Positions 24,571-39,360 of a stretch of DNA of 39,770 nucleotides are shown here, in pieces (position 1 is the first letter of the stretch; each line of letters begins with the position of its first letter). The notes under the pieces are model-generated. The model made no database searches. It saw only the letters and a program-made list of their open reading frames with translations, and was not told the DNA's origin. Both the position numbers and the translations under genes were made by a program. Source of the stretch: a virus (taxonomy: Duplodnaviria > Heunggongvirae > Uroviricota > Caudoviricetes); the IMG/VR virus record IMGVR_UViG_2778261456_000009, positions 1 through 39,770 of that record. One strand, written 5' to 3'.

Positions 24571-24726
24571 TTACTCCTCAGATTCGTAAGCTGTGAAGAC
24601 AGCGACCTCCGTCTGGCCGGTTCGGATTCGTACCTCGCAGAGGTCTTTCCTCGTTACCAGTGCCGTCACTATGACGGTTAAACAGATGACGATCAGGGCG
24701 ATTAACATCGCCTTTTGCTGCTTCAT
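24571..24726 (-). CDS. hok: Hok/Gef-family type I toxin
   Basis: 51 aa MKQQKAMLIALIVICLTVIVTALVTRKDLCEVRIRTGQTEVAVFTAYESEE, near-identical to recalled HokD/RelF and Gef; AAGGAG RBS. Confidence 0.85.
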   Translation of the reverse strand: MKQQKAMLIALIVICLTVIVTALVTRKDLCEVRIRTGQTEVAVFTAYESEE

Positions 24727-24783
24727 AGCCTGCTTCTCCTTGCCTTTCGGCGCGTAAGAGGCTAACCTACATGTGCAAGTCAT
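24571..24783 (-). CDS. mok: Mok-like in-frame leader ORF of hok
   Basis: In-frame 19-codon extension from ATG at 24783 (MTCTCRLASYAPKGKEKQA-), analogous to mokC/hokC in-frame arrangement. Confidence 0.4.
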   Translation of the reverse strand: MTCTCRLASYAPKGKEKQAMKQQKAMLIALIVICLTVIVTALVTRKDLCEVRIRTGQTEVAVFTAYESEE

Positions 24784-24972
24784 AGATATGGCCTCAGATT
24801 AATGTTAAGCGTCTTGCCGGACGCGTAATGTTAACTGGGGCTTTTCTCTATCTGCCTTTTGGTGTTCATGCCTGAGACAGATAGCCTCAAGCACCCGCAG
24901 CAATTCTACTTAACTCTCGCTTTACCGCAAACCGTTTTTACCCGATATGGGAATTCCCATATCGTAATGAAT

Positions 24973-25077
24973 TCAGTTCCCTAGTCGATCCATCAAAAAC
25001 ACAACCAGGCAGTAAACGCCCACAACAGCAATAACAGCCAGCGCACCTTCCATTGCCAGTGAAATATCATCCGACAT
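24973..25077 (-). CDS. Unlisted 34-aa hydrophobic peptide (putative small membrane protein)
   Basis: MSDDISLAMEGALAVIAVVGVYCLVVFLMDRLGN; ATG preceded by AAGGAGG at ideal spacing; one predicted TM helix; below track size cut-off. Confidence 0.35.
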   Translation of the reverse strand: MSDDISLAMEGALAVIAVVGVYCLVVFLMDRLGN

Positions 25078-25192
25078 ATTCCCTCCTTTGGTGTGAATCC
25101 CGGCGAACGTTTTTACCCCCACCGACAAATAACATATACTAAAAAATCAATAGCTATAGCAACGCCTGTAATTGCAAAGGCTTCAGGCCAGA

Positions 25193-26023
25193 TCATTGGC
25201 GCACCTCCTGCGGCGGTTCTGGTAGCGGCATCCAGTGGGTTACTCCGTCAATTGGTTCATCGTCGTCGTACTCCAATGCGGCTATATAGAACCCGTCACG
25301 ACGAGAATAAGAAATCCCGGACATTACAATGCCATCCGAAACAACAATAATGTCACCCGTTTCTTCCGGCATTCGCTCACTACAGCTTATCCAACCATCC
25401 GGAGTTACCGGAAGCGAGAACGGCAGCACATCTCTGTGAACAAGTTTTTGCTGTGACAGGTTATCCAGAACTTTCTGTACTGCTGCATCACCGAATACAC
25501 CAAGCGCATCTGCCATAACTCCTACAACCTGATAAGCCTCAGCGCATACCGTGGATAAACCATCCGGAATTACCGGAGAGTTGGTTGACGTTTCCGAGGT
25601 TTCCCGAAAATTATTGGTTGACGAATCCTTATTTTCCCGAAAGTTTCCAGCCTGAAGCATTGCGGCGCGGCAGGCGTTCCAGCCTCTCACCTCTGCAATA
25701 GCGGCAACAGCATCAACCGCGTACATGCTAAGAGGATTAGGCATTGGTTTTTCTTCCGGTACTACTGGAACGGGTGGAGCGGCGTAGACTTCAATAATCC
25801 CATTATCAATAGGCCATTCTCCATCCTTGAGGTAGTCACTTGTGCCGTCAACTTTCTGTTCTGCAATGTGGAATGCACCTATTGGTTTTGCTTCCAGCGA
25901 TACCAGTGCAATTCGTGCCAGTTCCTCCGCTTCTTCTGCTGGCAGTACAACGTTGCTACCCGGTCCGTATGTTTCGCGCCACTGCTTGATTGTCAGCAGT
26001 CGCTCTTTGGTTATAGTGGTCAT
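25193..26023 (-). CDS. DUF551-type C-terminal domain protein
   Basis: 276 aa; C-terminus (GFYIA...THWMPLPEPP) matches recalled DUF551 signature; internal NFRE..STN tandem repeat; AAGGA RBS. Confidence 0.6.
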   Translation of the reverse strand: MTTITKERLLTIKQWRETYGPGSNVVLPAEEAEELARIALVSLEAKPIGAFHIAEQKVDGTSDYLKDGEWPIDNGIIEVYAAPPVPVVPEEKPMPNPLSMYAVDAVAAIAEVRGWNACRAAMLQAGNFRENKDSSTNNFRETSETSTNSPVIPDGLSTVCAEAYQVVGVMADALGVFGDAAVQKVLDNLSQQKLVHRDVLPFSLPVTPDGWISCSERMPEETGDIIVVSDGIVMSGISYSRRDGFYIAALEYDDDEPIDGVTHWMPLPEPPQEVRQ

Positions 26024-26033
26024 TTGTTAGTCC

Positions 26034-26789
26034 TTAAACTGCCAGTTGCAATTGCATTTCAAAGCGGTCGCGTTGTTCACAATACGCAAGAGAACCAGGG
26101 CTATTGTGTGCCTCAATCCGTTCTACCATTAATGCTGCGCGTGTCTCTTTACTTGCAGGTGCATAAGCCCCAGACCAGGCTTTATCAATACCGATGTTTC
26201 GAGCGACGTTCGTACTATCTGCGCTGGCTAAGGGTAATTTTGTGAATATCAGCGGATTTAACATGCGCAATCCATGTAGTTTCGTAACCGGCTGACCATG
26301 CTCATCAACAATGTGACGAATCAGGTCTTTCATTCTGGCTACCGCAAGAGTTGGGCGCTTTACGTCATAGTCTCCACAACTACCGATAGCCACTCGCGGA
26401 AACTCATTGCACAAATGAATAAACCGCTCGTCACTTTCATTCATGTGCCACACTGGAACGCCAGATAGTTTTCCGTGAGGCCACTCATTCAGAAGCGCAT
26501 CATTTTCCTCCTCTCCGCCATCAATAACATCCGGGATAATGGCAAAATCGAATCCTGGGTGATTCTTCCAGCGAGCGACAAACTCGTAGTAATCGCTCCA
26601 GTCGATTTTGTTTTTGCCAGCTGCTTTCCAGGCGGTGAATGCACCGTTGTCCAGCGCGAACGACTGACAGTATTCAGCCGCGAGATTGATCTGTCCTGAA
26701 TGCGCAAAACTGATAAACGCATGCCGCCCTTTCCATGCTCTCATTGCGCACGTATCAGGAGTAATAGGCCCACCGTGATAGTGAATCAT
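26034..26789 (-). CDS. Conserved phage protein of unknown function
   Basis: 251 aa from ATG at 26789 with AGGAG RBS (track start 26822 is TTG); globular enzyme-like composition. Confidence 0.55.
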   Translation of the reverse strand: MIHYHGGPITPDTCAMRAWKGRHAFISFAHSGQINLAAEYCQSFALDNGAFTAWKAAGKNKIDWSDYYEFVARWKNHPGFDFAIIPDVIDGGEEENDALLNEWPHGKLSGVPVWHMNESDERFIHLCNEFPRVAIGSCGDYDVKRPTLAVARMKDLIRHIVDEHGQPVTKLHGLRMLNPLIFTKLPLASADSTNVARNIGIDKAWSGAYAPASKETRAALMVERIEAHNSPGSLAYCEQRDRFEMQLQLAV

Positions 26790-26790
26790 C

Positions 26791-27339
26791 TCACTCTCCT
26801 TTGATGCGAATGCCTGTTGCAATGCTGTTTATGATGCTGTCAGTGCATGGGGTAGAAAGCTGGGCATCTCCAGCAATTTTCATGACCTCAACATCTGCAT
26901 ATCGAATACCGAGGTGTATCAGACCGGCTATACCTGACTTAAGCCGAGCATTTTCCATAAACAGATCCTTTGCCCGCTGTTTTTCTGCCTCAAGCTCAAC
27001 GCGCAGCTTCCCTACCGTTAGCGCAATATCCTCGTTCTCCTGGTCGCGTGATTTGATGTATTGCTGGTTTCTTTCCCGTTCATCCAGTAGTGCCAGCACG
27101 GTAGCTGGGTTAACCTCTGCTATGAATTCAGCGTTTGCATAAGCCTGAGCATCTGTTTCAACCAGGCAGTTAACGTGACATTCTGCAATTACGCCACCGG
27201 GTTCTCCTTTCCATTTTTGACAAACAAAAACTCCTGTTATATTCCCATGCTGATTGACCGATGTATGCCCTACGATGTAGCTCCCTTTCGTTGCCTTTTC
27301 TGCCGCTTCACGCAGTGCCTGATAGTTAATTTTGCTCAC
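26791..27339 (-). CDS. Ead/Ea22-like protein
   Basis: 182 aa, GTG start with AGGAGG RBS; N-terminus [16 protein letters not shown] shared with neighbour paralog; coiled-coil middle. Confidence 0.55.
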   Translation of the reverse strand: MSKINYQALREAAEKATKGSYIVGHTSVNQHGNITGVFVCQKWKGEPGGVIAECHVNCLVETDAQAYANAEFIAEVNPATVLALLDERERNQQYIKSRDQENEDIALTVGKLRVELEAEKQRAKDLFMENARLKSGIAGLIHLGIRYADVEVMKIAGDAQLSTPCTDSIINSIATGIRIKGE

Positions 27340-27923
27340 TGGTTGCCTCCTTTGCGAAGCTGTTCAGCAATACTTACGCATATCTCTGCGCCTCTAATCA
27401 GCCCCGGAACGTTCTTGTTTGGCCCAACTTCACCATCAACAAAATCAATCATCGCGTTACGAGCCATATCCACCCCCTGCGCACGTACTTCAGCCAGGAG
27501 AGCGTCGGTAGCTGGGGTTTCCGTGAAGTTGTCCTCCCAACCGTAGTACTCCTGACGACAGAAGTTATTAAATTCCTTCTCCGACTGTTTAAGCGCCGCA
27601 TTCTCCACTGCCAGCGCCGCGCACTTGGCCTCAAGAGCTGCAACCACTTCCTGATGGTCTTTGTACTTAACGTATGAGCCGGAGATGTCATCACCTTCGG
27701 TGTTTAGCCATGCGTCATTGCAATTCACTGCGTAGGTTCTGATGCTGATGCTCTCCCGCCCCTGACAGACGCCAGGCCAGTCAATAAAGTATCCGCAATG
27801 CCTACCCTCAGACGTGCGCGCAGGATAAATGCCGTTATGACCCGGCAAAATATATGCTACCCATTCATCTTGCGTTGCCTGTTCCGCCGCCTCGCGCAGT
27901 TCTTGATAGTCAATCTTGCTCAC
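27336..27923 (-). CDS. Ead/Ea22-like protein (tandem paralog)
   Basis: N-terminus [17 protein letters not shown]; start set at GTG 27923 preceded by AGGAGGCAACCA, identical to neighbour. Confidence 0.55.
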
Positions 27924-28662
27924 TGGTTGCCTCCTGGCAAAGCTGGGCGACAATATCGCGATATTTATTCAGCTCCCGCAGCGCGACACAGACTCGCTCC
28001 CATTTCCGGATATCACTTTTCGCCCGACGCAGTTCGCGGTTTGCCTGTCGCAGCGATGGCAGAACCAGATTATCCACTCGCTTCTCAAGCGGCTGCACAA
28101 TGTCTGCCACAGTTTCTGTTTTAATATCTTCCTGTGTTGCAGCTTCCTGTCCCGGTAACGCAACACCTGCTGGTTGAGGAAAGGCCTTACCATCACTTTC
28201 CGTTACCAGCGCGGCTTTCGGCTCTGCTGGTAAATTATCGCCCGGCATGCAGTAACGAAATTTACCGTTCTGATTAACGCGTGCCAGCCGCCCCGTTGCG
28301 GTTACCACCGCCAGCGTGGAAGCAACCTTGCGAGTACTGACACCGAACTTACCCGCCAGTTCCTCACACGTTTTAGCCCCATCCTGACCGATAAACTCAA
28401 TCATCATGTCTGCGGTAACTTTTTGTTCGACCTCCCCGGTCAGCATATCCTGTGCTTCAGATTTTACTGGCCGCTCTTCGGTTACCCGGGATTCACCTTC
28501 GCCAGCCAGAGACCAGGTGTGACCAGTTTTATCAACAACGCCATTTCTTTTGAGTTCCCACAGCTCGTTGACAGCCTCTTCACGACTGATATCAAGTCGC
28601 GCAGCCAGTTCTACCGACGTGGCTTTTCCCATTGCTTTCAGTGCGTCAAATACAGTTTCCAT
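27910..28662 (-). CDS. Replication-module protein with N-terminal winged-helix-like domain (DUF1627-like)
   Basis: Start set at ATG 28662 with GGGAGG RBS; sits between DnaC-like gene and ead-like genes. Confidence 0.5.
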
Positions 28663-28684
28663 TAAAATTTCCTCCCGGTAAAAA

Positions 28685-29431
28685 TCACTTCGCAATTCCT
28701 GGCTGGACGACATTCGGACGCCAGCTCTCCCAGTTAAAATTCACCCATCGCCCGCCGTTCATGGTCATGCGATCCATAATCCGCTCGCCGAGCAATGTTT
28801 TCATGGCCTCATAGTTCAGGTTTGTCAGCATCCCCACGCTGCGCATCGACGCTGTCCGGCGATCAACAATCTGGTGCAGCACCACCTGCTCGTTTTTTGT
28901 CTCGCGCTGAATGCCAATTTCATCAAGAACCAGCAGATCCACTTGGCACAGTTCCCGCAAAAATTTTTCGCCTGATTGCCCGTCGTCATAGCTGGCGTGT
29001 AGAGCACTCATGACATCAGCCACGGTAACCACAATCACTGTCTGGCCATCTTTCAGCAGGCGATTCCCGATAGCCGCCGCCAGATGGTTTTTTCCGGTAC
29101 CAGGTTTTCCGCTGAACGCAAAATTTGTACACCCGGTCATCAGTTCATCAGCGATAGATTTCGCCTGGTTCAACGCGTATCGCTGACCGTCGTTCTGCAC
29201 CTGGTAATTCGCAAACGAGCATTTGCGGTGCAATGGCTGGATGCCAGAGCGATTCAGAATTTTTTCCACCCGCAACTGACGATTCTGACGGTTGATCTCC
29301 TCACAACGTTTCTGGCCTTCGGAAAGTTGCCACTCGCGCCACTCCGCTACCGTTTTGAATGGGGCGGTTACATGTGGCGGGGCCAGTCTGCGGATACGTT
29401 CAAGAATGCCTCCTGCCGCAATATTTTTCAT
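28685..29431 (-). CDS. DnaC-like helicase loader
   Basis: Walker [16 protein letters not shown] and Walker [10 protein letters not shown]; directly downstream of initiator gene. Confidence 0.85.
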
Positions 29432-29437
29432 GGTCAG

Positions 29438-30568
29438 TTACCCCCTGAAGCCTGGCGGGATCGCACTATCCGGTAACGAGACGGTGTTAACCTGTCGGAG
29501 TAACGTCTCAGGTCGAACACCTTTTGGCGCGAACAAGCCCTGGTATTCATTGGCGATGCTGTGTCGAATCACCTGCTCAGGTGAAAAACCCTGCTGGCGG
29601 AATTTTTCCAGCTCCCGTATCGCCCCGTTAGCGCCCTGCTCCGTTCGAATTGGTTTTCGCAATGCCTGCCTGAACTGGACCCACTCATGCCAGAGTGTTT
29701 CCGGCAACCAATCGGGCAGAGCAACTGACAACGGGTCGAATTTTTTCTGGCGAACCGCCCCACCGATAACCAGAATTCCCTGCTCGGTGTGCCTTGCGAT
29801 ATCACTGCGCCGCAAGACACATATCCCGGTTTCAACAGCACCGATTTTGAGCAATGATTTTTGTCGTGGAGAATTTCGGTCAAGTTCGATCCCACACCGG
29901 ACACCGTTCCTGTCAGTCACGACGATATCAATCCGCCCTCCGCAGCCGTCTCCACGCTCTGGTACCGGATACTCACGACAGACATCCAGGCCAGCAGCCT
30001 GCAACGCCGCCACCGCAGAATTACAAAATTCTGCTGCAGTACCGCCAGACAATCTCCCCTCAAGCACTCCAGCCACAAAATCCCGAAACTCCCTTCCGGA
30101 AGGGAAGGGTTTGGGATGGGTTAGATCAGTATTTATATCTTCCTCTTCCTCTTCCTCTGGTAACGCTTTTTGATCCGTTTGTGTAACGCTGCCAGCGTTA
30201 CCTTTTCGTTTCAGTTCGCGTATTTTTGTTACTCGCTCGTTTGTAACCGCCCGTTTTTTAGAGCTTTTCCCGTTATGACGTTCAAAGTTAGGTAGAGAAA
30301 GCCCACCGTCATTTTCGACCAGCCATCCAACCTGAATTAACGCATCAGCAAAACCAGCCATAAAAGTGATGCGATCTATTGCACTTTTTGTAACGCCGCG
30401 AGCGTTACAATCTGCATTACCGTCTATCATTTGTTGATCCGCCCATGCCCAGAAGCGAATAACCTTCCCTAATGCGGCATCTGGATCAATATTCAGAATC
30501 TCAGCAAGCCTGAATATTTCCGGCTTATCCGGCGTAATAACCTCGAGCTTTATCCAGTTTGAAGCCAT
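29438..30568 (-). CDS. Replication initiation protein (replisome organizer N-terminus, DnaT-like C-terminus)
   Basis: 376 aa; acidic linker (EEEEEED); C-terminal region resembles DnaT-like domain of lambdoid O-type proteins; followed by DnaC-like gene. Confidence 0.7.
   Translation of the reverse strand: MASNWIKLEVITPDKPEIFRLAEILNIDPDAALGKVIRFWAWADQQMIDGNADCNARGVTKSAIDRITFMAGFADALIQVGWLVENDGGLSLPNFERHNGKSSKKRAVTNERVTKIRELKRKGNAGSVTQTDQKALPEEEEEEDINTDLTHPKPFPSGREFRDFVAGVLEGRLSGGTAAEFCNSAVAALQAAGLDVCREYPVPERGDGCGGRIDIVVTDRNGVRCGIELDRNSPRQKSLLKIGAVETGICVLRRSDIARHTEQGILVIGGAVRQKKFDPLSVALPDWLPETLWHEWVQFRQALRKPIRTEQGANGAIRELEKFRQQGFSPEQVIRHSIANEYQGLFAPKGVRPETLLRQVNTVSLPDSAIPPGFRG
30183..30201. repeat. 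19-bp perfect palindrome GTAACGCTG-C-CAGCGTTAC (copy 1 of 3)
   Basis: Read directly; inside initiator gene about 125 codons from its start; a related GTTAC-N10-GTAAC element lies at 30228-30247. Confidence 0.5.
30389..30409. repeat. Palindrome TGTAACGC-CGCGA-GCGTTACA (copy 2 of 3)
   Basis: Read directly; inside initiator gene about 55 codons from its start. Confidence 0.5.
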
Positions 30569-30580
30569 TTGTTTTCACCT

Positions 30581-30601
30581 TGTAACGCTCGCAGCGTTAC
30601 A
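30581..30601. repeat. Palindrome TGTAACGC-TCGCA-GCGTTACA (copy 3 of 3)
   Basis: Read directly; 13-33 nt upstream of initiator ATG (30568). Confidence 0.5.
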
Positions 30602-30645
30602 TTTAACTGATACCGAACAAAACAATCCGGCACGATTAATTTCAA

Positions 30646-31068
30646 TCAATGCACTACGACAGAATCGCCGGGCGACCCACCACCGCTGAAATGTGCTTTC
30701 CGGTAAACGGCCTGTACTGCATCATCATGCGCATCAATTGCCGTACTCAACGCTTCCTGCGCCGCCAGTAATGCACGGCGTTCCAGGGTATCGAAGATGC
30801 AGAGTCGGTGACGCAGCTCGCGCGGAAGAATTGCCAGAACCGCAGGGATGAGTTTCTGAATTTTTTCCCTTTGCGCTTTCGTTTCACCTTTCAACCAACG
30901 GTGATAGATATTCTGCTGATTGTTCCAGTCCTTGCCTGGTACAAGGGGCAATTCGCCGCCCCCCTGGCGCAGATATTCTTCAGTAATTGCGTTAGCGACC
31001 CACGCCTGCCCTTTTTCGGCTGCCAGGGCTAACAACACTGATTCGATGTGCTCATGCCTGATTTTCAT
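30646..31068 (-). CDS. ydaT: YdaT-like (CII-position) protein
   Basis: 140 aa, near-identical to recalled Rac YdaT (MKI.HEHIESVL.ALAAEKGQAWVANAITEEYLRQGGGELPLVPGKDW...); ATGA overlap with upstream cro-like gene. Confidence 0.65.
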   Translation of the reverse strand: MKIRHEHIESVLLALAAEKGQAWVANAITEEYLRQGGGELPLVPGKDWNNQQNIYHRWLKGETKAQREKIQKLIPAVLAILPRELRHRLCIFDTLERRALLAAQEALSTAIDAHDDAVQAVYRKAHFSGGGSPGDSVVVH

Positions 31069-32477: not shown

Positions 32478-32872
32478 AGGAATACCTTATTACTGGTTGT
32501 GTGAGAACTCCAGTATACCACCGAGCCTGAAGTGGTAAAAAGACAGGCGCACAACACGAAGGCGCATTTCCGGTATTCATAAAGAGTCGGTCTTGTCTGT
32601 TAAATTTAAATGGTGGGAGTGCGCCTCCGGTTGTAAATAACGACATTGCTATGTGTAGTCTTTGGCGGCATCAGTTCTACTCCGTGGCTGCCCTGCCGCC
32701 CCTTTTTAAAGTGAATTTTGTGATTCGGTGAATGCGGCTAAGCGCACGCGGCACAGTTAAAAGCATCAGTGTTATGGGTGGATTATCCGGCGTTAATTGT
32801 TAACTGGTTAACGTCACCTGGAGGCACCAGGCACCGCATCGACAAAATTCATTTGTAAAAATGGAGATAATT

Positions 32873-33714: not shown

Positions 33715-36372
33715 ATGAGCACCGATAAACAAGTTTACCCACTGTATTACGAAGCAAAAAATGACAAAGTAAGAAAACGTCTCGGTATTAAAGGCGGTTT
33801 CTACTGGGCTGAAGCGAAAAAATTATCCATTGCCATCTCCCGTGGTGCTGTTGCGATTGACGATGCTGGCTACGATGAAGATGACTTTAAAAAACCTGTT
33901 CGCGTCAATTTGCCCGTTGTTGATGACCTTCCACCAGAAGGCGTATTTGATACGGAATTCTGCAACCGTTACGAAAAAGGCGGGGAAGATGGCATCACAA
34001 TGGTATTTATCGCGCCCTCATCCTCTGCGCAGGACAAACCAGCCAGCACTGACAATACCAATGTTAATGGCGAAGACATGACGGAGATTGAGGAGAATAT
34101 GCTACTCCCGATTTCCGGTCAGGAGCTGCCCATTCGCTGGCTTGCTCAACACGGCAGCGAAAAACCGGTAACGCACGTTTCACGCGACGAACTACAGGCA
34201 TTACACATTGCACGAGCTGAAGAACTACCAGCTGTTACTGCCCTGGCTGTTTCCCACAAAACCAGCCTGCTCGACCCGCTGGAAATTCGCGATCTCCACA
34301 AACTGGTGCGTGATACTGACAGAGTTTTCCCTAATCCAGGCAATTCAAGCCTGGGGCTGATGACTGCTTTTTTCGAAGCATACCTGGACGCAGACTACAC
34401 CGATCGCGGTCTGCTGACAAAAGAGTGGATGAAAGGAAATCGTGTTTCACGCATCACGCGCACGGCTTCCGGCGCTAATGCTGGCGGCGGGAACCTCACC
34501 GATCGCGGCGAAGGTTTCGTTCACGATCTGACGTCACTGGCGCGCGACGTAGCCACTGGCGTACTGGCTCGTTCAATGGACGTGGACATTTATAACCTTC
34601 ATCCGGCACACGCTAAACGTGTCGAGGAAATTATCGCTGAAAATAAACCGCCCTTTTCTGTTTTCCGCGACAAATTCATCACCATGCCTGGCGGGCTGGA
34701 TTATTCCCGCGCCATCGTGGTTGCGTCCGTAAAAGAAGCACCAATTGGGATCGAGGTTATCCCCGCACACGTCACTGAATATCTTAACAAAGTACTGACT
34801 GAAACTGATCATGCCAACCCTGATCCAGAAATCGTGGATATTGCCTGCGGTCGTTCCTCTGCCCCGATGCCGCAGCGTGTAACAGAAGAAGAAAAACAGG
34901 ATGATGAAGAAAAACTGCAACCATCTTGCGCAATGGCAGATGAACAGGCAACGGCTGAAACAGTGGAACCGGATGCAACTGAACATCATCAGGACACGCA
35001 GCCGCTGGATGCTCAGTCACAGGTAAATTCTGTTGATGCGAAATATCAGAAACTGCGGGCAGAACTCTATGAAGCCCGGAAAAACATTCCGCCCCAAAAT
35101 CCTGTCGATGCAGACAAATTACTGGCTGCCTCTCGCGGAGAATTTGTTGAAGGGATTAGCGACCCGAATGATCCGAAATGGGTTAAGGGGATCCAGACCC
35201 GCGATTCTGTGTACCAGAATCAGCCAGAAACGGAACAGAACGACCCAAATACGCAACAAAACGAGCCAGAAACGAAACAGCCTGAGCCAGTAGTGCAACA
35301 ACAGGAAACGGAGAAAGTTTGCACCGCCTGCGGTAAGGCTGGCGGCGGCAACTGTCCTGACTGTGGCGCGGTGATGGGCGACGCAACGTATCAGAAAACC
35401 TTTAATGAAGAAAATCAGAATGAATATCAGGAAAAAGGTCTGGAGGAAATGGAAGGTGCTGAACATCCGCACAATGAGAATGCTGGCAGCGATCCGCATC
35501 GCGATTGCAGTGATGAAACTGGCGAAGTCGCAGATACCGTAATCGTAGAAGACATAGAGCCAGGTATTTATTACGGAATTTCGAATGAGAATTACCACGC
35601 GGGTCCCGGTGTCAGTAAGTCTCAGCTCGATGACATTGCTGATACTCCGGCACTGTATTTGTGGCGTAAAAATGCCCCCGTGGACACTACAAAGACAAAA
35701 ACGCTCGATTTAGGAACCGCTTTCCACTGTCGGGTACTTGAACCGGAAGAATTCAGTAACCGCTTTATCGTAGCACCTGAATTTAACCGCCGTACAAACG
35801 CCGGAAAAGAAGAAGAGAAAGCGTTTCTGATGGAATGCGCAAGCACAGGAAAAACGGTTATCACTGCGGAAGAAGGCCGGAAAATTGAACTCATGTATCA
35901 AAGCGTTATGGCTTTGCCGCTGGGGCAATGGCTTGTTGAAAGCGCCGGACACGCTGAATCATCAATTTACTGGGAAGATCCGGAAACAGGAATTTTGTGT
36001 CGGTGCCGTCCGGACAAAATTATTCCTGAATTTCACTGGATCATGGACGTGAAAACCACAGCGGATATTCAACGATTCAAAACGGCTTATTACGACTACC
36101 GCTATCACGTTCAGGATGCATTCTACAGTGACGGTTATGAAGCACAGTTTGGCGTGCTGCCAACTTTCGTTTTTCTGGTTGCCAGCACAACTGTTGAATG
36201 CGGACGTTACCCGGTTGAGATTTTCATGATGGGCGAAGAAGCAAAACTGGCAGGCCAGCAGGAATATCACCGCAATCTGAGGACCCTGGCTGACTGCCTG
36301 AATACCGATGAATGGCCAGCTATTAAAACGTTATCACTGCCCCGCTGGGCTAAGGAGTATGCAAATGACTAA
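33715..36372 (+). CDS. recE: RecE, exonuclease VIII
   Basis: 885 aa; from about residue 110 near-identical to recalled K-12 RecE, including C-terminal nuclease domain; first about 100 aa diverge from recalled sequence. Confidence 0.95.
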
Positions 36373-37174
36373 GCAACCACCTATCGCAAAAGCCGATCTG
36401 CAAAAAACCCAGGGAAACCGTGCACCAGCAGCAGTAAAAAATAACGACGTGATCAGCTTTATTAATCAGCCATCAATGAAAGAGCAACTGGCAGCAGCTC
36501 TCCCACGCCATATGACGGCTGAACGAATGATACGTATCGCCACCACAGAAATTCGTAAGGTTCCGGCGCTAGGAAACTGTGACACCATGAGTTTTGTCAG
36601 TGCGATCGTTCAGTGTTCACAGCTCGGCCTTGAGCCAGGTAGCGCCCTCGGCCACGCATATTTACTGCCTTTTGGTAATAAAAACGAAAAGAGCGGTAAA
36701 AAGAACGTTCAGCTAATCATTGGTTATCGCGGCATGATTGATCTGGCTCGCCGTTCTGGTCAAATCGCCAGCCTGTCAGCCCGTGTTGTCCGTGAAGGTG
36801 ACGAGTTTAGTTTTGAATTTGGCCTTGATGAAAAGTTAATACACCGCCCGGGAGAAAACGAAGATGCACCAGTGACCCACGTCTATGCTGTCGCAAGACT
36901 GAAAGACGGAGGGACTCAGTTTGAAGTTATGACGCGCAAACAGATTGAACTGGTGCGCAGCCAGAGTAAGGCTGGTAATAACGGGCCATGGGTAACTCAC
37001 TGGGAAGAAATGGCAAAAAAAACGGCTATTCGTCGCCTGTTTAAATACCTGCCCGTATCAATTGAGATCCAGCGCGCGGTATCAATGGATGAAAAGGAAC
37101 CACTGACAATCGATCCGGCAGATTCCTCTGTATTAACCGGGGAATACAGTGTAATCGATAATTCAGAGGAATAA
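36365..37174 (+). CDS. recT: RecT, single-strand annealing protein
   Basis: 269 aa starting [24 protein letters not shown]..., matching recalled RecT; ATG overlaps recE stop; track start is over-extended. Confidence 0.95.
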
Positions 37175-37230: not shown

Positions 37231-37425
37231 ATGAGATATGACGATGTTAAACCATGTCCGTTTTGTGGTTGTCCATCAGTAACGGTGAAAGCCATTTCAG
37301 GATATTACCGCGCGAAGTGTAACGGATGCGAATCCCGAACCGGCTATGGTGGAAGTGAAAAAGAAGCACTCGAACGATGGAATAAACGAACCACTGGAAA
37401 TAATAATGGAGGTGTTCATGTATAA
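37231..37425 (+). CDS. ralR: RalR (Lar), restriction alleviation protein
   Basis: 64 aa MRYDDVKPCPFCGCPSVTVKAISGYYRAKCNGCESRTGYGGSEKEALERWNKRTTGNNNGGVHV matching recalled RalR. Confidence 0.9.
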   Translation: MRYDDVKPCPFCGCPSVTVKAISGYYRAKCNGCESRTGYGGSEKEALERWNKRTTGNNNGGVHV

Positions 37426-37606
37426 AATTACCGCCACTATTGAAAAAGAAGGTGGCACTCCTACTAACTGGATAAGATATTCAAAATCTAAATTAACGAA
37501 ATCAGAATGCGAAAAAATGCTCTCAGGGAAAAAAGAAGCAGGCGTTTCCAGAGAGCAGAAAGTAAAACTGATAAATTTTAATTGCGAGAAACTTCTGTCC
37601 TCGTGA
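37418..37606 (+). CDS. ydaC: YdaC-like protein
   Basis: 62 aa MYKITATIEKEGGTPTNW...; overlaps ralR stop by 8 nt; gene order as recalled for Rac. Confidence 0.7.
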   Translation: MYKITATIEKEGGTPTNWIRYSKSKLTKSECEKMLSGKKEAGVSREQKVKLINFNCEKLLSS

Positions 37607-37706: not shown

Positions 37707-37994
37707 ATGGCAATGAATCTTGTGACACTCAAAACGTGGGGGAAACTCAGATATCCGGATAACCCACCATCAATATCAACGCTGAGACGATGGGCAAGGA
37801 ATGGAAACATTTATCCTGCACCTGAACTACACGGGAGGAGTTACAGGGTGGTTCCGGAAGCTTTCTATATCAACCCAAATAAGGTTGATACCGATATAAC
37901 ACACCATCAACCTAATGGGCGACAAGGGAGAGACGGTCCGTTACTGGAGAAGTTAAAACATGCAGCGGAAAAAATACGATCCCAATTTGCCTAA
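37707..37994 (+). CDS. xis: Excisionase (Xis-like)
   Basis: N-terminus (TLKTWGKLRYPDNPPSISTLRRWARNGNIYPAPELHGRSYRVV) parallels lambda Xis; AAGAGG RBS; 3' end overlaps int start as in lambda. Confidence 0.6.
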   Translation: MAMNLVTLKTWGKLRYPDNPPSISTLRRWARNGNIYPAPELHGRSYRVVPEAFYINPNKVDTDITHHQPNGRQGRDGPLLEKLKHAAEKIRSQFA

Positions 37995-39036
37995 AAACTT
38001 AACATATCGAAGGAGGGACAAAGCATATTACTGGCGCAACCCTCTGACGAAAGAAGAATTTACACTAGGTAAAATTTCAAGAAGAGATGCAGTAGCGCAG
38101 GCAATTGAAGCAAATCATTATATATACAAAAACTACTCTCCTGCTGCCTTAATTGAAAAACTTAAAGGGTTCGACTCATTTACTATGGCAGACTGGATTG
38201 AACGTTACAAAACGATTCTTATAAGGAGAAAAGTGTCCAGAAATACTTATAAAATTCGGGTAAATCAACTGGAGACAATAAAAGAAAAATTAGGAGGGAT
38301 TTTACTGACAGAAATAACCACTCGCCATATTGCCGAGTTTCTTGATTTGTGGATTGAAGGAGGGAAAAACACGATGGCAGGATCAATGCGTTCTGTGTTA
38401 TCTGATATGTTCCGCGAGGCCATTGTTGAAGGACGTATATCTCAAAATCCAGTAACGCCAACAAGAGCACCGAAAATAGTAGTTACAAGAGAACGGCTGA
38501 AACTAAAGACATACAACTGCATCAGGGAGGCAGCAGATCAACTTCCGGCATGGTTCCCATTAGCTATGGATTTAGCCCTTGTAACAGGACAACGTCGCGA
38601 AGACATAACGAATATGCGGTTCAGTGATATTTATGATGACCGTCTCCACATCAGGCAAATTAAGACAGGAATGATGATTGCTATCCCTCTGTCACTCAGC
38701 CTTCCTGTCGCTGGTCTACGGCTTGGTACAGTAGTTGAACGATGCCGCCTGGTAAGCCGGGGAGATTATCTAATCAGTGCCGGGATTAGAAAAAACAGCC
38801 CTGACGGCAGCATTCACCCGGATGGCCTGACAAAAAAATTTGTCGCAGCCAGAAAATTAACAGGTATCCAGTTCAGTGAAAACCCACCAACTTTTCACGA
38901 GATCAGAAGTCTGGCTGGACGATTGTACAAAGAAACATGTGGAGAAGAATTTGCCCAGCGCCTACTTGGTCACACATCGGAGAAGACAACAAAAATGTAT
39001 CTTGATGAGCGAGAAAAAACGTACTTACTGCTCTGA
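37960..39036 (+). CDS. int: Tyrosine integrase, lambda Int family
   Basis: 358 aa; alignable by eye to lambda Int (PPNL, FGLG, catalytic region with [11 protein letters not shown] and [13 protein letters not shown]). Confidence 0.9.
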
Positions 39037-39133: not shown

Positions 39134-39174
39134 AGACGCTTGCAACTAATTGATTTTAAATACAATTAAAAAGA

Positions 39175-39201
39175 GACCGAATACGATTCCTGTATTCGGT
39201 C
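39175..39201. repeat. Hairpin GACCGAATAC-GATTCCT-GTATTCGGTC, with a direct copy of the arm at 39090-39100
   Basis: 10-bp perfect stem; AAAAAGACCGGAATAC at 39085-39100 repeats the left arm context. Confidence 0.4.
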
Positions 39202-39360
39202 CAGGGAAATGGCTCTTGGGAGAGAGCCGTGCGCTAAAAGTTGGCATTAATGCAGGCTTAGTTGCCTTGCCTTTTAAGAATAGATGACGACGCCAGGTTT
39301 TCCAGTTTGCGTGCAAAATGGTCAATAAAAAGCGTGGTGGTCATCAGCTGAAATGTTAAA

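Follow-up and report, generated by a model that had tools for sequence, protein, structure and literature searches.

Why do two neighbouring genes begin with almost the same stretch of DNA and then cease to resemble each other at that level? The question is raised by a tandem pair of Ead/Ea22-like genes, called gene A and gene B in the following, on the 39,770-nucleotide (nt) virus record IMGVR_UViG_2778261456_000009, the whole of which is referred to as the window. The window is an Escherichia coli prophage whose right flank, yebY/ryeA/ryeB, is 99.9% identical to E. coli. We consider it likely that the two shared 5' ends are copies of one portable Ead/Ea22 gene-boundary module of about 80 nt, which would serve both as a crossover point for homologous recombination and as a translational-coupling junction. 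This junction island is conserved as DNA, both of its flanks reassort, and identity to relatives breaks at its edges. The features on which the argument turns are given here, with the evidence for each in brackets:

27285 to 27370, minus strand: junction island, copy A (repeat, alignment, coverage, ends of high-scoring segment pairs)
27869 to 27954, minus strand: junction island, copy B (repeat, alignment, coverage)
26791 to 27339, minus strand: gene A, Ead/Ea22-like, 182 amino acids (aa), GTG start (PF13935, 3.2e-39; comparison with lambda ea22)
27336 to 27923, minus strand: gene B, Ead/Ea22-like, 195 aa, GTG start (PF13935, 1.2e-17; phrog_368, 9.9e-41)

Extent and anatomy of the shared segment

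A repeat search aligned 27351-27285 with 27935-27869 (minus strand) as a direct repeat of 67 nt, 58 of them identical (87%), at a spacing of 584 base pairs (bp). The 20-mer AGGAGGCAACCAGTGAGCAA at its start occurs exactly twice in the window, at 27332-27351 and 27916-27935 (minus strand); even with as many as three mismatches allowed, there is no third copy, and no match arose in 100 dinucleotide shuffles, so that none is expected by chance. Alignment with MAFFT carries the likeness about 20 nt further upstream of the Shine-Dalgarno sequence across a single 1-nt indel (CAGCTTCGCAAAGGAGG versus CAGCTTTGC-CAGGAGG), which brings the repeat to about 86 nt in total. These figures bear out an earlier, sequence-only reading of the locus, which had described a near-identical 5' segment of about 60 bp including the ribosome-binding site and the GTG start; the pairwise identity of 87% lies well above the 70% that this reading had set as its lower limit. 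The same reading held that about 17 codons are alike before the genes diverge completely. The first part agrees with the MAFFT alignment, in which nucleotide likeness between genes A and B collapses past about codon 18; the second goes too far, since both proteins keep the Ead_Ea22 domain and further conserved islands lie downstream in the family.

Both copies join the end of one gene to the beginning of the next. Copy A holds the Shine-Dalgarno sequence AGGAGG (27351-27346), the GTG of gene A (27339-27337) and its codons 1-18, together with the last codons of gene B, whose stop (27338-27336) overlaps the start of gene A as GTGA. Copy B holds AGGAGG (27935-27930), the spacer CAACCA, the GTG of gene B (27923-27921) and codons 1-18; it also includes the last codons of the upstream DUF1627 gene, whose stop (27912-27910) creates a 14-nt overlap with gene B. 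Through the 1-nt indel, the DUF1627 gene reads the island in another frame than gene B does at copy A. The translation-initiation region that had been proposed as conserved is indeed so, with AGGAGG, a 6-nt spacer, GTG and an upstream stop that overlaps the start or lies adjacent to it. Judged from this geometry, translation of each cassette is probably coupled to the preceding gene.

The double reading of the upstream half recurs among relatives. One frame ends in ..QLRKGGNQ-stop with the GTGA overlap (n=80), the other in ..EATSEQD-stop with the 14-nt overlap (n=40), and most of the upstream proteins that read the island into their tails are mutually unrelated. In a regular-expression test for Ead-like upstream genes, only 4 of the 93 unique upstream open reading frames (ORFs) carried N-terminal or LLDE motifs; hence, the island is not simply a spacer within homogeneous Ead arrays.

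The arrangement also bears on the start of gene B, for which the GTG at 27923 is preferred. The ORF track extends the gene to a TTG at 27953, which the sequence-only reading had suspected to be an over-extension, with that GTG as the more likely start. A consensus Shine-Dalgarno sequence lies 6 nt 5' of that GTG and none precedes the TTG; for WP_023156631.1, 100% identical to gene B, RefSeq places the start of the 195-aa protein at this GTG, and does so in two genomic contexts that differ; and in a plasmid relative the conserved block stops at 27944, before reaching the TTG. The same combination of Shine-Dalgarno sequence and GTG is found at gene A and across the family. Gene callers that favour the longest ORF mis-start such genes, for which the GTG behind AGGAGG-N6 is the start.

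The assignment of both genes to the Ead/Ea22 family, also made from the letters alone, is upheld by the profile searches and by lambda itself. Gene A matches Pfam PF13935 (Ead_Ea22) with 135.1 bits over profile positions 1-139 of 139 and gene B with 65.2 bits over 1-108 of 139, at a gathering score of 27 bits. The best PHROG for both is phrog_368, accompanied by piecewise matches to many other PHROGs, a sign of mosaic proteins. Between the two proteins, BLASTP aligns residues 1-53 only, with 40% identity. Over its first 50 nt, gene A shows 92% identity to the beginning of the lambda ea22 coding sequence (CDS; J02459, 30347-30396), and its N-terminal segment is homologous to that of lambda Ea22 in a comparison of 16-residue peptides. 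The start of the coiled coil is nearly identical in the two (LLDERERNQQYIK.RDQENEDIALTVGKLRVELE; in gene A, LLDERERNQQYIK..LRVELE), and the tail GIRIKGE-stop is as in lambda Ea22. Gene A and lambda ea22 are closely related. A single-sequence AlphaFold2 model of gene A is weak (mean predicted local distance difference test score, pLDDT, 60.7) and places a helix at 6-15, strands at 20-55 and a long helix at 78-156; block-mean pLDDT reaches 79-97 over residues 81-130, so that the long helix alone is confident and the N-terminal domain is unreliable. A sequence search of the PDB with proteins A and B returned nothing meaningful.

Reassortment of the flanks

The island is widespread. The exact 20-mer is present in at least 120 IMG/VR contigs, and matches to the 86-nt island were found in 472 phage records, among them lambda, P22-like Salmonella phages, HK, mEp, Shiga toxin (Stx) and P1-like phages. 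Across 96 unique contexts placed in register, the major allele has a frequency of 0.65-1.0 between about positions -30 and +50, counted from the GTG, against about 0.4 on either side. Pairwise identity among islands has a median of 78%, with the 5th and 95th percentiles at 45 and 93%. A protein-level alignment scan of species-representative genomes gave 24 pattern matches, none of which was confirmed by tblastn, and was uninformative.

This distribution bears on the most immediate explanation of a repeat in two neighbouring genes, namely a recent local tandem duplication or gene conversion followed by fast divergence of the bodies, which would have left the 5' ends alike. The genes lie side by side, point the same way, fall into one Pfam family and both carry the repeat, all of which such an event would produce. 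However, among 80 unique islands from elsewhere, 14 resemble copy A and 8 resemble copy B more closely than the other in-window copy does (87%), and identical copies exist elsewhere. The two copies differ by five synonymous and four nonsynonymous codons in 18; gene B occurs 100% identical beside different partners, both upstream and downstream; and the bodies, unalignable with each other as DNA, are 97-99% identical to the same bodies in other genomes. The in-window islands are thus not each other's closest relatives, and a recent duplication or conversion, which we regard as very improbable, was rejected. The sequence-only reading had left the choice between duplication and recombination-driven cassette exchange: the former is contradicted by the closer copies elsewhere and the five synonymous differences, while the latter is supported by reassortment and breakpoints. 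The pair in the window would be two family members assembled side by side, neither recently copied from the other.

Reassortment was quantified by clustering the flanks of 111 IMG/VR island instances, with 265 nt taken on the upstream side and 333 nt on the downstream side. Upstream, the instances fall into 28 sequence types and downstream into 32; 67 combinations of these occur, and for several cluster pairs all four combinations occur (e.g., up0/up2 with dn1/dn2), a four-gamete violation. The proteins encoded behind the island share MSKIDYQALREAAEKAT and then continue with many unrelated types of insert; many of them converge again at ..NPATVLALLDERERNQQYIK.. and part once more. In gene A, these parts correspond to the following segments:

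27109 to 27284, minus strand: variable cassette V1, codons about 19-77, a predicted beta-strand insert (replaced or absent in relatives)
26985 to 27108, minus strand: second conserved island I2, codons about 78-118, NPATVLALLDERERNQQYIKSRDQENEDIALTVGKLRVELE (coverage, breakpoints, ends of high-scoring segment pairs)
26787 to 26984, minus strand: C-terminal cassette and tail junction (sequence; 28-nt patch in the E. coli chromosome L121; tails of family CDSs)

Some loci depart from this scheme. Bodies other than Ead are joined to the Shine-Dalgarno sequence and GTGAGCAA alone, one being a 103-aa hydrophobic, probably membrane protein (MSNYLYWSGLVANIALMLFV..; MSNYLYW..) and another a 214-aa protein (MSNRFYMMCLRETVGNNASF..; MSNRFYMM..). 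Short derivatives of 68 aa, in which the Ead N-terminus is fused straight onto a C-terminal module, are also found in IMG/VR loci.

Individual relatives show where identity breaks. The E. coli chromosome L121 matches the window at 99.3% identity from 28999 to 26985 and is unrelated beyond that point, which is codon 118 of gene A and one edge of I2; it carries a 256-aa Ead partner in place of gene A. The P1-like plasmid L200 is 97.5% identical over 27296-27944, that is, over gene B and both islands, and has a different upstream gene; it is without V1, and its match resumes at the other edge of I2 and covers 26790-27108 at 97.2%. The 148-aa homolog on plasmid pMB9698_1 is without V1, with both flanks 97% identical. 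Over 199 loci, the ends of high-scoring segment pairs pile up at 26775-26790, 26970-27000, 27090-27135, 27285-27300, 27345-27370 and 27930-27945. Coverage of the same loci forms a comb, with 128-176 loci over island A, 110-128 over I2 and 72-74 over island B, against 12-25 over the Ead bodies in between (about 14 in gene B, about 23-25 beside I2) and 3-5 over the bodies of the DUF1627 and DpdA-like genes on either side (4 in DUF1627). None of 5426 complete E. coli genomes carries more than 80% of 26700-28100 in one place (best 80%, rounded), and pieces of this region are present in 2976 of them. The expectation that gene bodies vary behind the conserved 5' segment in relatives is therefore borne out by the 67 combinations and by the breaks in identity at the island edges.

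P1-like phage-plasmids of about 90-130 kb (L200, L122; MH422554, MH445380) also carry gene B and parts of gene A with an identity of 97-98%, the E. coli set having 641 plasmid places. From these matches, the Ead cassette pool appears to bridge the lambda-like and P1/P2/Mu groups.

The far end of gene A repeats the logic of the island on a smaller scale. Its last codons, ATC AAA GGA GAG TGA, are followed by G ATG (26814-26787, minus strand) and read ..IKGE-stop, with the ATG of the next gene at 26789; AAGGAG in this tail doubles as the Shine-Dalgarno sequence of the next gene, which starts 1 nt past the stop (TGA-G-ATG). L121 retains a conserved patch of 28 nt here (26787-26814). Among 150 unique family CDSs, 74 end in IRIKGE-stop followed by G-ATG, and most other tails (RINGGE, RKGGNQ, IRIKGD, PPQEVK, RKGVIQ, KGEAS) have GGAG embedded just before an overlapping or adjacent start. 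Lambda ea22 (L201, 1436-1456) retains AAAGGAGAGTGAGATCGG with ATG changed to ATC and has no adjoining gene; its tail looks like a relic junction. The C-terminal '+GE' motif of Ea22 has been called of unknown significance (PMC7093339). This motif and the RKGGNQ tails are most simply read as translated imprints of the Shine-Dalgarno sequence of the next gene, and conserved C-terminal peptides of the family should not be over-interpreted as functional protein motifs.

Taken as a mechanism, the module would consist of the last 6-8 codons of the upstream gene, AGGAGG, a GTG that overlaps or abuts the stop, and the first 17 or so codons, which form the N-terminal helix. It would offer a patch of homology at which phage annealases cross over, RecET in this prophage and Red or Erf elsewhere, with I2 (26985-27108) and the tail junction (26787-26814) in the same role. 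An exchange would swap upstream genes, N-terminal inserts and C-terminal domains in frame and leave expression undisturbed: the overlap of stop and start would couple the translation of a cassette to the preceding gene, and each swapped cassette would bring a ready initiation site. RecE and RecT would be the catalyst of exchange at such short and diverged homologies. Rac RecET recombines 78%-identical substrates as efficiently as lambda Red, and RecET, Red and Erf do so far better than RecA; about 30 bp suffice for Red-beta (PMC3945230). Sub-genic fragments are the commonest mosaics of temperate E. coli phages (PMC3945230). The locus has the traces described for such recombination: blocks of 97-99% identity end at island edges, islands with a median identity of 78% stand between flanks at background level, the flanks reassort, the island measures 67-86 nt (87% identity in the window), and RecE and RecT are encoded. 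The recombination genes of the window are the following:

33715 to 37174, plus strand: RecE (33715-36372) and RecT (36308-37174) (Exonuc_VIII, 1.3e-37; DUF3799, 2.5e-27; RecT, 1.5e-56)
37960 to 39036: tyrosine recombinase, an integrase of lambda type that has an arm-binding domain and lies beside the host flank, at the end of the prophage

The second of these raises the alternative of a dedicated site-specific cassette system, resembling an integron, a shufflon or a diversity-generating retroelement, that would use the repeat as its site; repeats do flank variable cassettes here, and a tyrosine recombinase is at hand. This recombinase is, however, an ordinary integrase 10 kb away, and the repeat is coding, is without an inverted-repeat core and varies continuously over the range given above. 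No reverse transcriptase or template repeat was found among the ORFs scanned. We regard such a system as extremely unlikely.

Conservation of the island as DNA

If not a crossover point, the island could be held in place by purifying selection on the N-terminal helix and the Shine-Dalgarno sequence only, with the mosaics formed by illegitimate joining elsewhere. The peptide MSKIDYQALREAAEKAT is conserved and lies inside the Pfam domain, the in-window copies do differ at synonymous positions, and flanking homology traces accompany only about 30% of lambdoid mosaics (PMC3945230), all of which would suit this explanation. A search of IMG/VR for the peptide MSKI[DN]YQ, which was blind to codons and required M at position 1, bears on it; of the 50 unique variants retrieved, 48 have an ATG start. 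Although their upstream contexts are unrelated, their codons are nearly fixed (Ser AGC 50/50, Ile ATT 50/50, Leu CTG 47/50, Arg CGT 47/50). In addition, the upstream half of the island is conserved despite being read in two frames into unrelated proteins, and I2, far from any start codon, is as conserved in DNA as the junction island itself. All three observations suggest that constraint on the protein would not suffice. Given that identity breakpoints also coincide with the island edges, selection as the sole cause is unlikely.

The conserved DNA might instead be a cis-regulatory element in front of each gene: an mRNA structure, a small RNA target, an antisense promoter or a protein-binding site. 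Neither the Shine-Dalgarno sequence nor its spacer varies between the two copies, and both are the same in nearly all loci that the 20-mer retrieved, a set that is biased in this respect. In the codon-blind set, other combinations of Shine-Dalgarno sequence and spacer precede the same coding segment, and the coding part stands behind several unrelated upstream contexts, that of lambda among them. Folds of 120 nt have z-scores of +0.27 and -0.02 against shuffles, and the minimum-free-energy structures of the two copies differ; one promoter-like site was found where 2.3 are expected, with no excess of terminators; and Rfam has no match in 25000-31000. With z-scores near zero, no common structure and no Rfam match, a structured cis-regulatory RNA was rejected, and we hold a cis-regulatory element of any of these kinds to be highly unlikely.

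Several points nevertheless weigh against a recombination module and temper our preference for it. The breakpoints are historical inferences, and no recombination event was seen directly. The five synonymous differences indicate that no active homogenisation of the island takes place within this genome. The first set of loci was fetched with the exact 20-mer, which makes conservation of the 20-mer itself a circular finding; only the flanks and the set based on the peptide escape this bias, and the latter required an ATG. Moreover, the fetched loci are mostly E. coli prophages, which are not phylogenetically independent, and the codon uniformity may partly reflect recent common ancestry. Finally, the N-terminal helix is conserved as a protein as well, and both selection and recombination contribute to the conservation of the island.

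A bolder extension of the preferred reading would regard the Ead/Ea22 arrays as a hypervariable display locus instead of passive mosaic debris, in which a fixed scaffold, made up of N-terminal helix, coiled coil and tail/Shine-Dalgarno junction, carries DNA 'handles' selected for the swapping of target-binding inserts and C-terminal domains by annealases of the RecET/Red type. Its pool would span lambdoid prophages and P1-like phage-plasmids and would be driven by an arms race with host or rival-phage factors. We think this improbable. If true, the handles would be an evolved recombination device, functionally similar to cassette systems and operating via general homologous recombination.

Prophage context and comparison with known systems

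The prophage encodes, besides the lambda-type integrase, RecE and RecT, a helix-turn-helix repressor-like protein, YdaT, O-like and DnaC-like replication genes, DUF1627, the two Ead genes, a DpdA-like gene, DUF551, hok/sok, DUF1367, a Q-like gene, terminase and tail genes. On their strand, the Ead genes are located after the O-like, DnaC-like and DUF1627 genes and ahead of DUF551, DUF1367 and the Q-like gene. Their direct neighbours and the Rfam matches of the whole window, none of which lies near the repeat, are listed below:

27910 to 28713, minus strand: DUF1627 gene, upstream; its last 14 nt overlap gene B (PF07789, 4.8e-85)
26034 to 26789, minus strand: DpdA-like (queuine tRNA-ribosyltransferase-like) gene, downstream (phrog_887, 7.6e-104; no Pfam hit)
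24721 to 24896, minus strand: sok
32650 to 32701, plus strand: DicF
37424 to 37602, minus strand: RalA
39164 to 39308: SraC/RyeA-SdsR/RyeB, a host pair beside yebY at the right end of the prophage

The DpdA-like gene is a rare cassette between two short conserved junctions, with its body in 3-4 of the 199 loci and its borders in 18-49. Its start is probably the ATG at 26789, the TTG at 26822 given by the ORF track overlapping gene A. The gene may point to 7-deazaguanine modification of DNA by the prophage. The DUF551 gene (25193-26023, minus strand) shows the same comb, in that about 25210-25240, 25360-25420 and 25870-26020 occur in 40-113 of the 199 loci and the parts between in 3-25; a 39-nt junction at 26000-26038 is kept in unrelated contexts, and an imperfect tandem repeat of 33 nt is found at 25581-25645, within the gene and on its non-coding strand.

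The RalA antitoxin small RNA belongs to a Rac-type RalR/RalA pair, and sok indicates a hok/sok module; small-RNA modules of the Rac-like and of the Qin-like kind occur together in this prophage, whose integration site adjoins ryeA/ryeB. A search for tRNA genes in the window found none. The replication initiator (29438-30568, minus strand) is chimeric by PHROG, with an O-like/replication-initiation part at 1-152, a middle of unknown function and a 'primosomal protein' part at 269-376; it has no Pfam match at E<=0.01. A preprint on the Pas small RNA, checked for a link, mentions DUF1627 neighbours only. The record of 'Actinobacillus phage vB_Apl-pPE4' (PP818812.1) matches window positions 27480-28700 (Ead/DUF1627/replication) at 92%, which is unexpected for a Pasteurellaceae phage and suggests a mis-assigned host, contamination or recent transfer.

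Compared with lambda ea22 and P22 ead (PF13935; IPR025153), gene A has the GTG start, the N-terminal segment, the start of the coiled coil and the GIRIKGE-stop tail in common. In the published architecture of Ea22 (PMC7093339, PMC10834534), a short helix at the N-terminus is followed by a beta insert in some members, then by a coiled coil and by a C-terminal domain that varies; the genes described here probably share it. Unlike lambda ea22, gene A has V1 and a different C-terminal domain, while gene B has another putative coiled-coil or C-terminal set and ends in ..QLRKGGNQ-stop rather than in +GE. The position differs as well: ea22 lies between exo and xis in the early-left region of lambda, whereas genes A and B stand in tandem in a nin-like rightward region. 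Position is not part of the Pfam definition, and membership in PF13935 stands; orthology to the lambda ea22 locus does not. Pro-lysogenic activity is a trait of ea22 in lambda and in the Stx phage Phi24B.

Mosaicism of ea22 has been published: the amino-terminal segment and the coiled coil are shared, Stx variants carry an insert of 63 aa, and the C-terminal domains are unrelated (PMC10834534; PMC7093339). The traces of homologous recombination described in PMC3945230 resemble those seen here in their blocks of a few hundred bp and 95-99% identity, bounded by short patches of lower but above-background identity, in the sub-genic scale of exchange and in the presence of a RecET pair in the same prophage. 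That work was genome-wide, showed such traces at other loci and did not examine the island. In it, De Paepe et al. (2014) found no recent mosaics between the lambda-like and the P1/P2/Mu groups (PMC3945230), whereas the cassettes described here are also 97-98% identical on P1-like phage-plasmids. Ea22 mosaicism and relaxed recombination in lambdoid phages being already published, the novelty is low. The finding is a well-resolved instance of known lambdoid mosaicism, not a new system, and leaves the current understanding of phage mosaicism unchanged.

Two older notions are closest to the island itself. Susskind and Botstein (1978) and the HK97/HK022 and HK620 genome papers reportedly described conserved 'linker' sequences at lambdoid gene boundaries, in keeping with the modular theory. 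The island shares with these linkers its shortness, its place between interchangeable genes and the location of joints at or near gene boundaries; it differs in straddling the boundary and reaching 50 nt into coding sequence, with further joints inside genes at domain boundaries. Translationally coupled junctions with overlapping stop and start codons (ATGA/GTGA) occur in phage and bacterial operons. The GTGA at copy A, the 14-nt overlap at copy B and the TGA-G-ATG at the end of gene A have a comparable geometry, each time with the Shine-Dalgarno sequence within the last codons of the upstream gene. What is unusual here is that the junction is itself conserved and mobile and gives upstream proteins that are otherwise unrelated the same C-terminal tail. 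It provides a clean and quantified textbook case, in which an island of about 80 nt holds the tail of one gene, a ribosome-binding site, a stop/start overlap and a structural helix, and would let lambdoid phages and P1-like phage-plasmids shuffle pieces of accessory genes in frame with expression kept.

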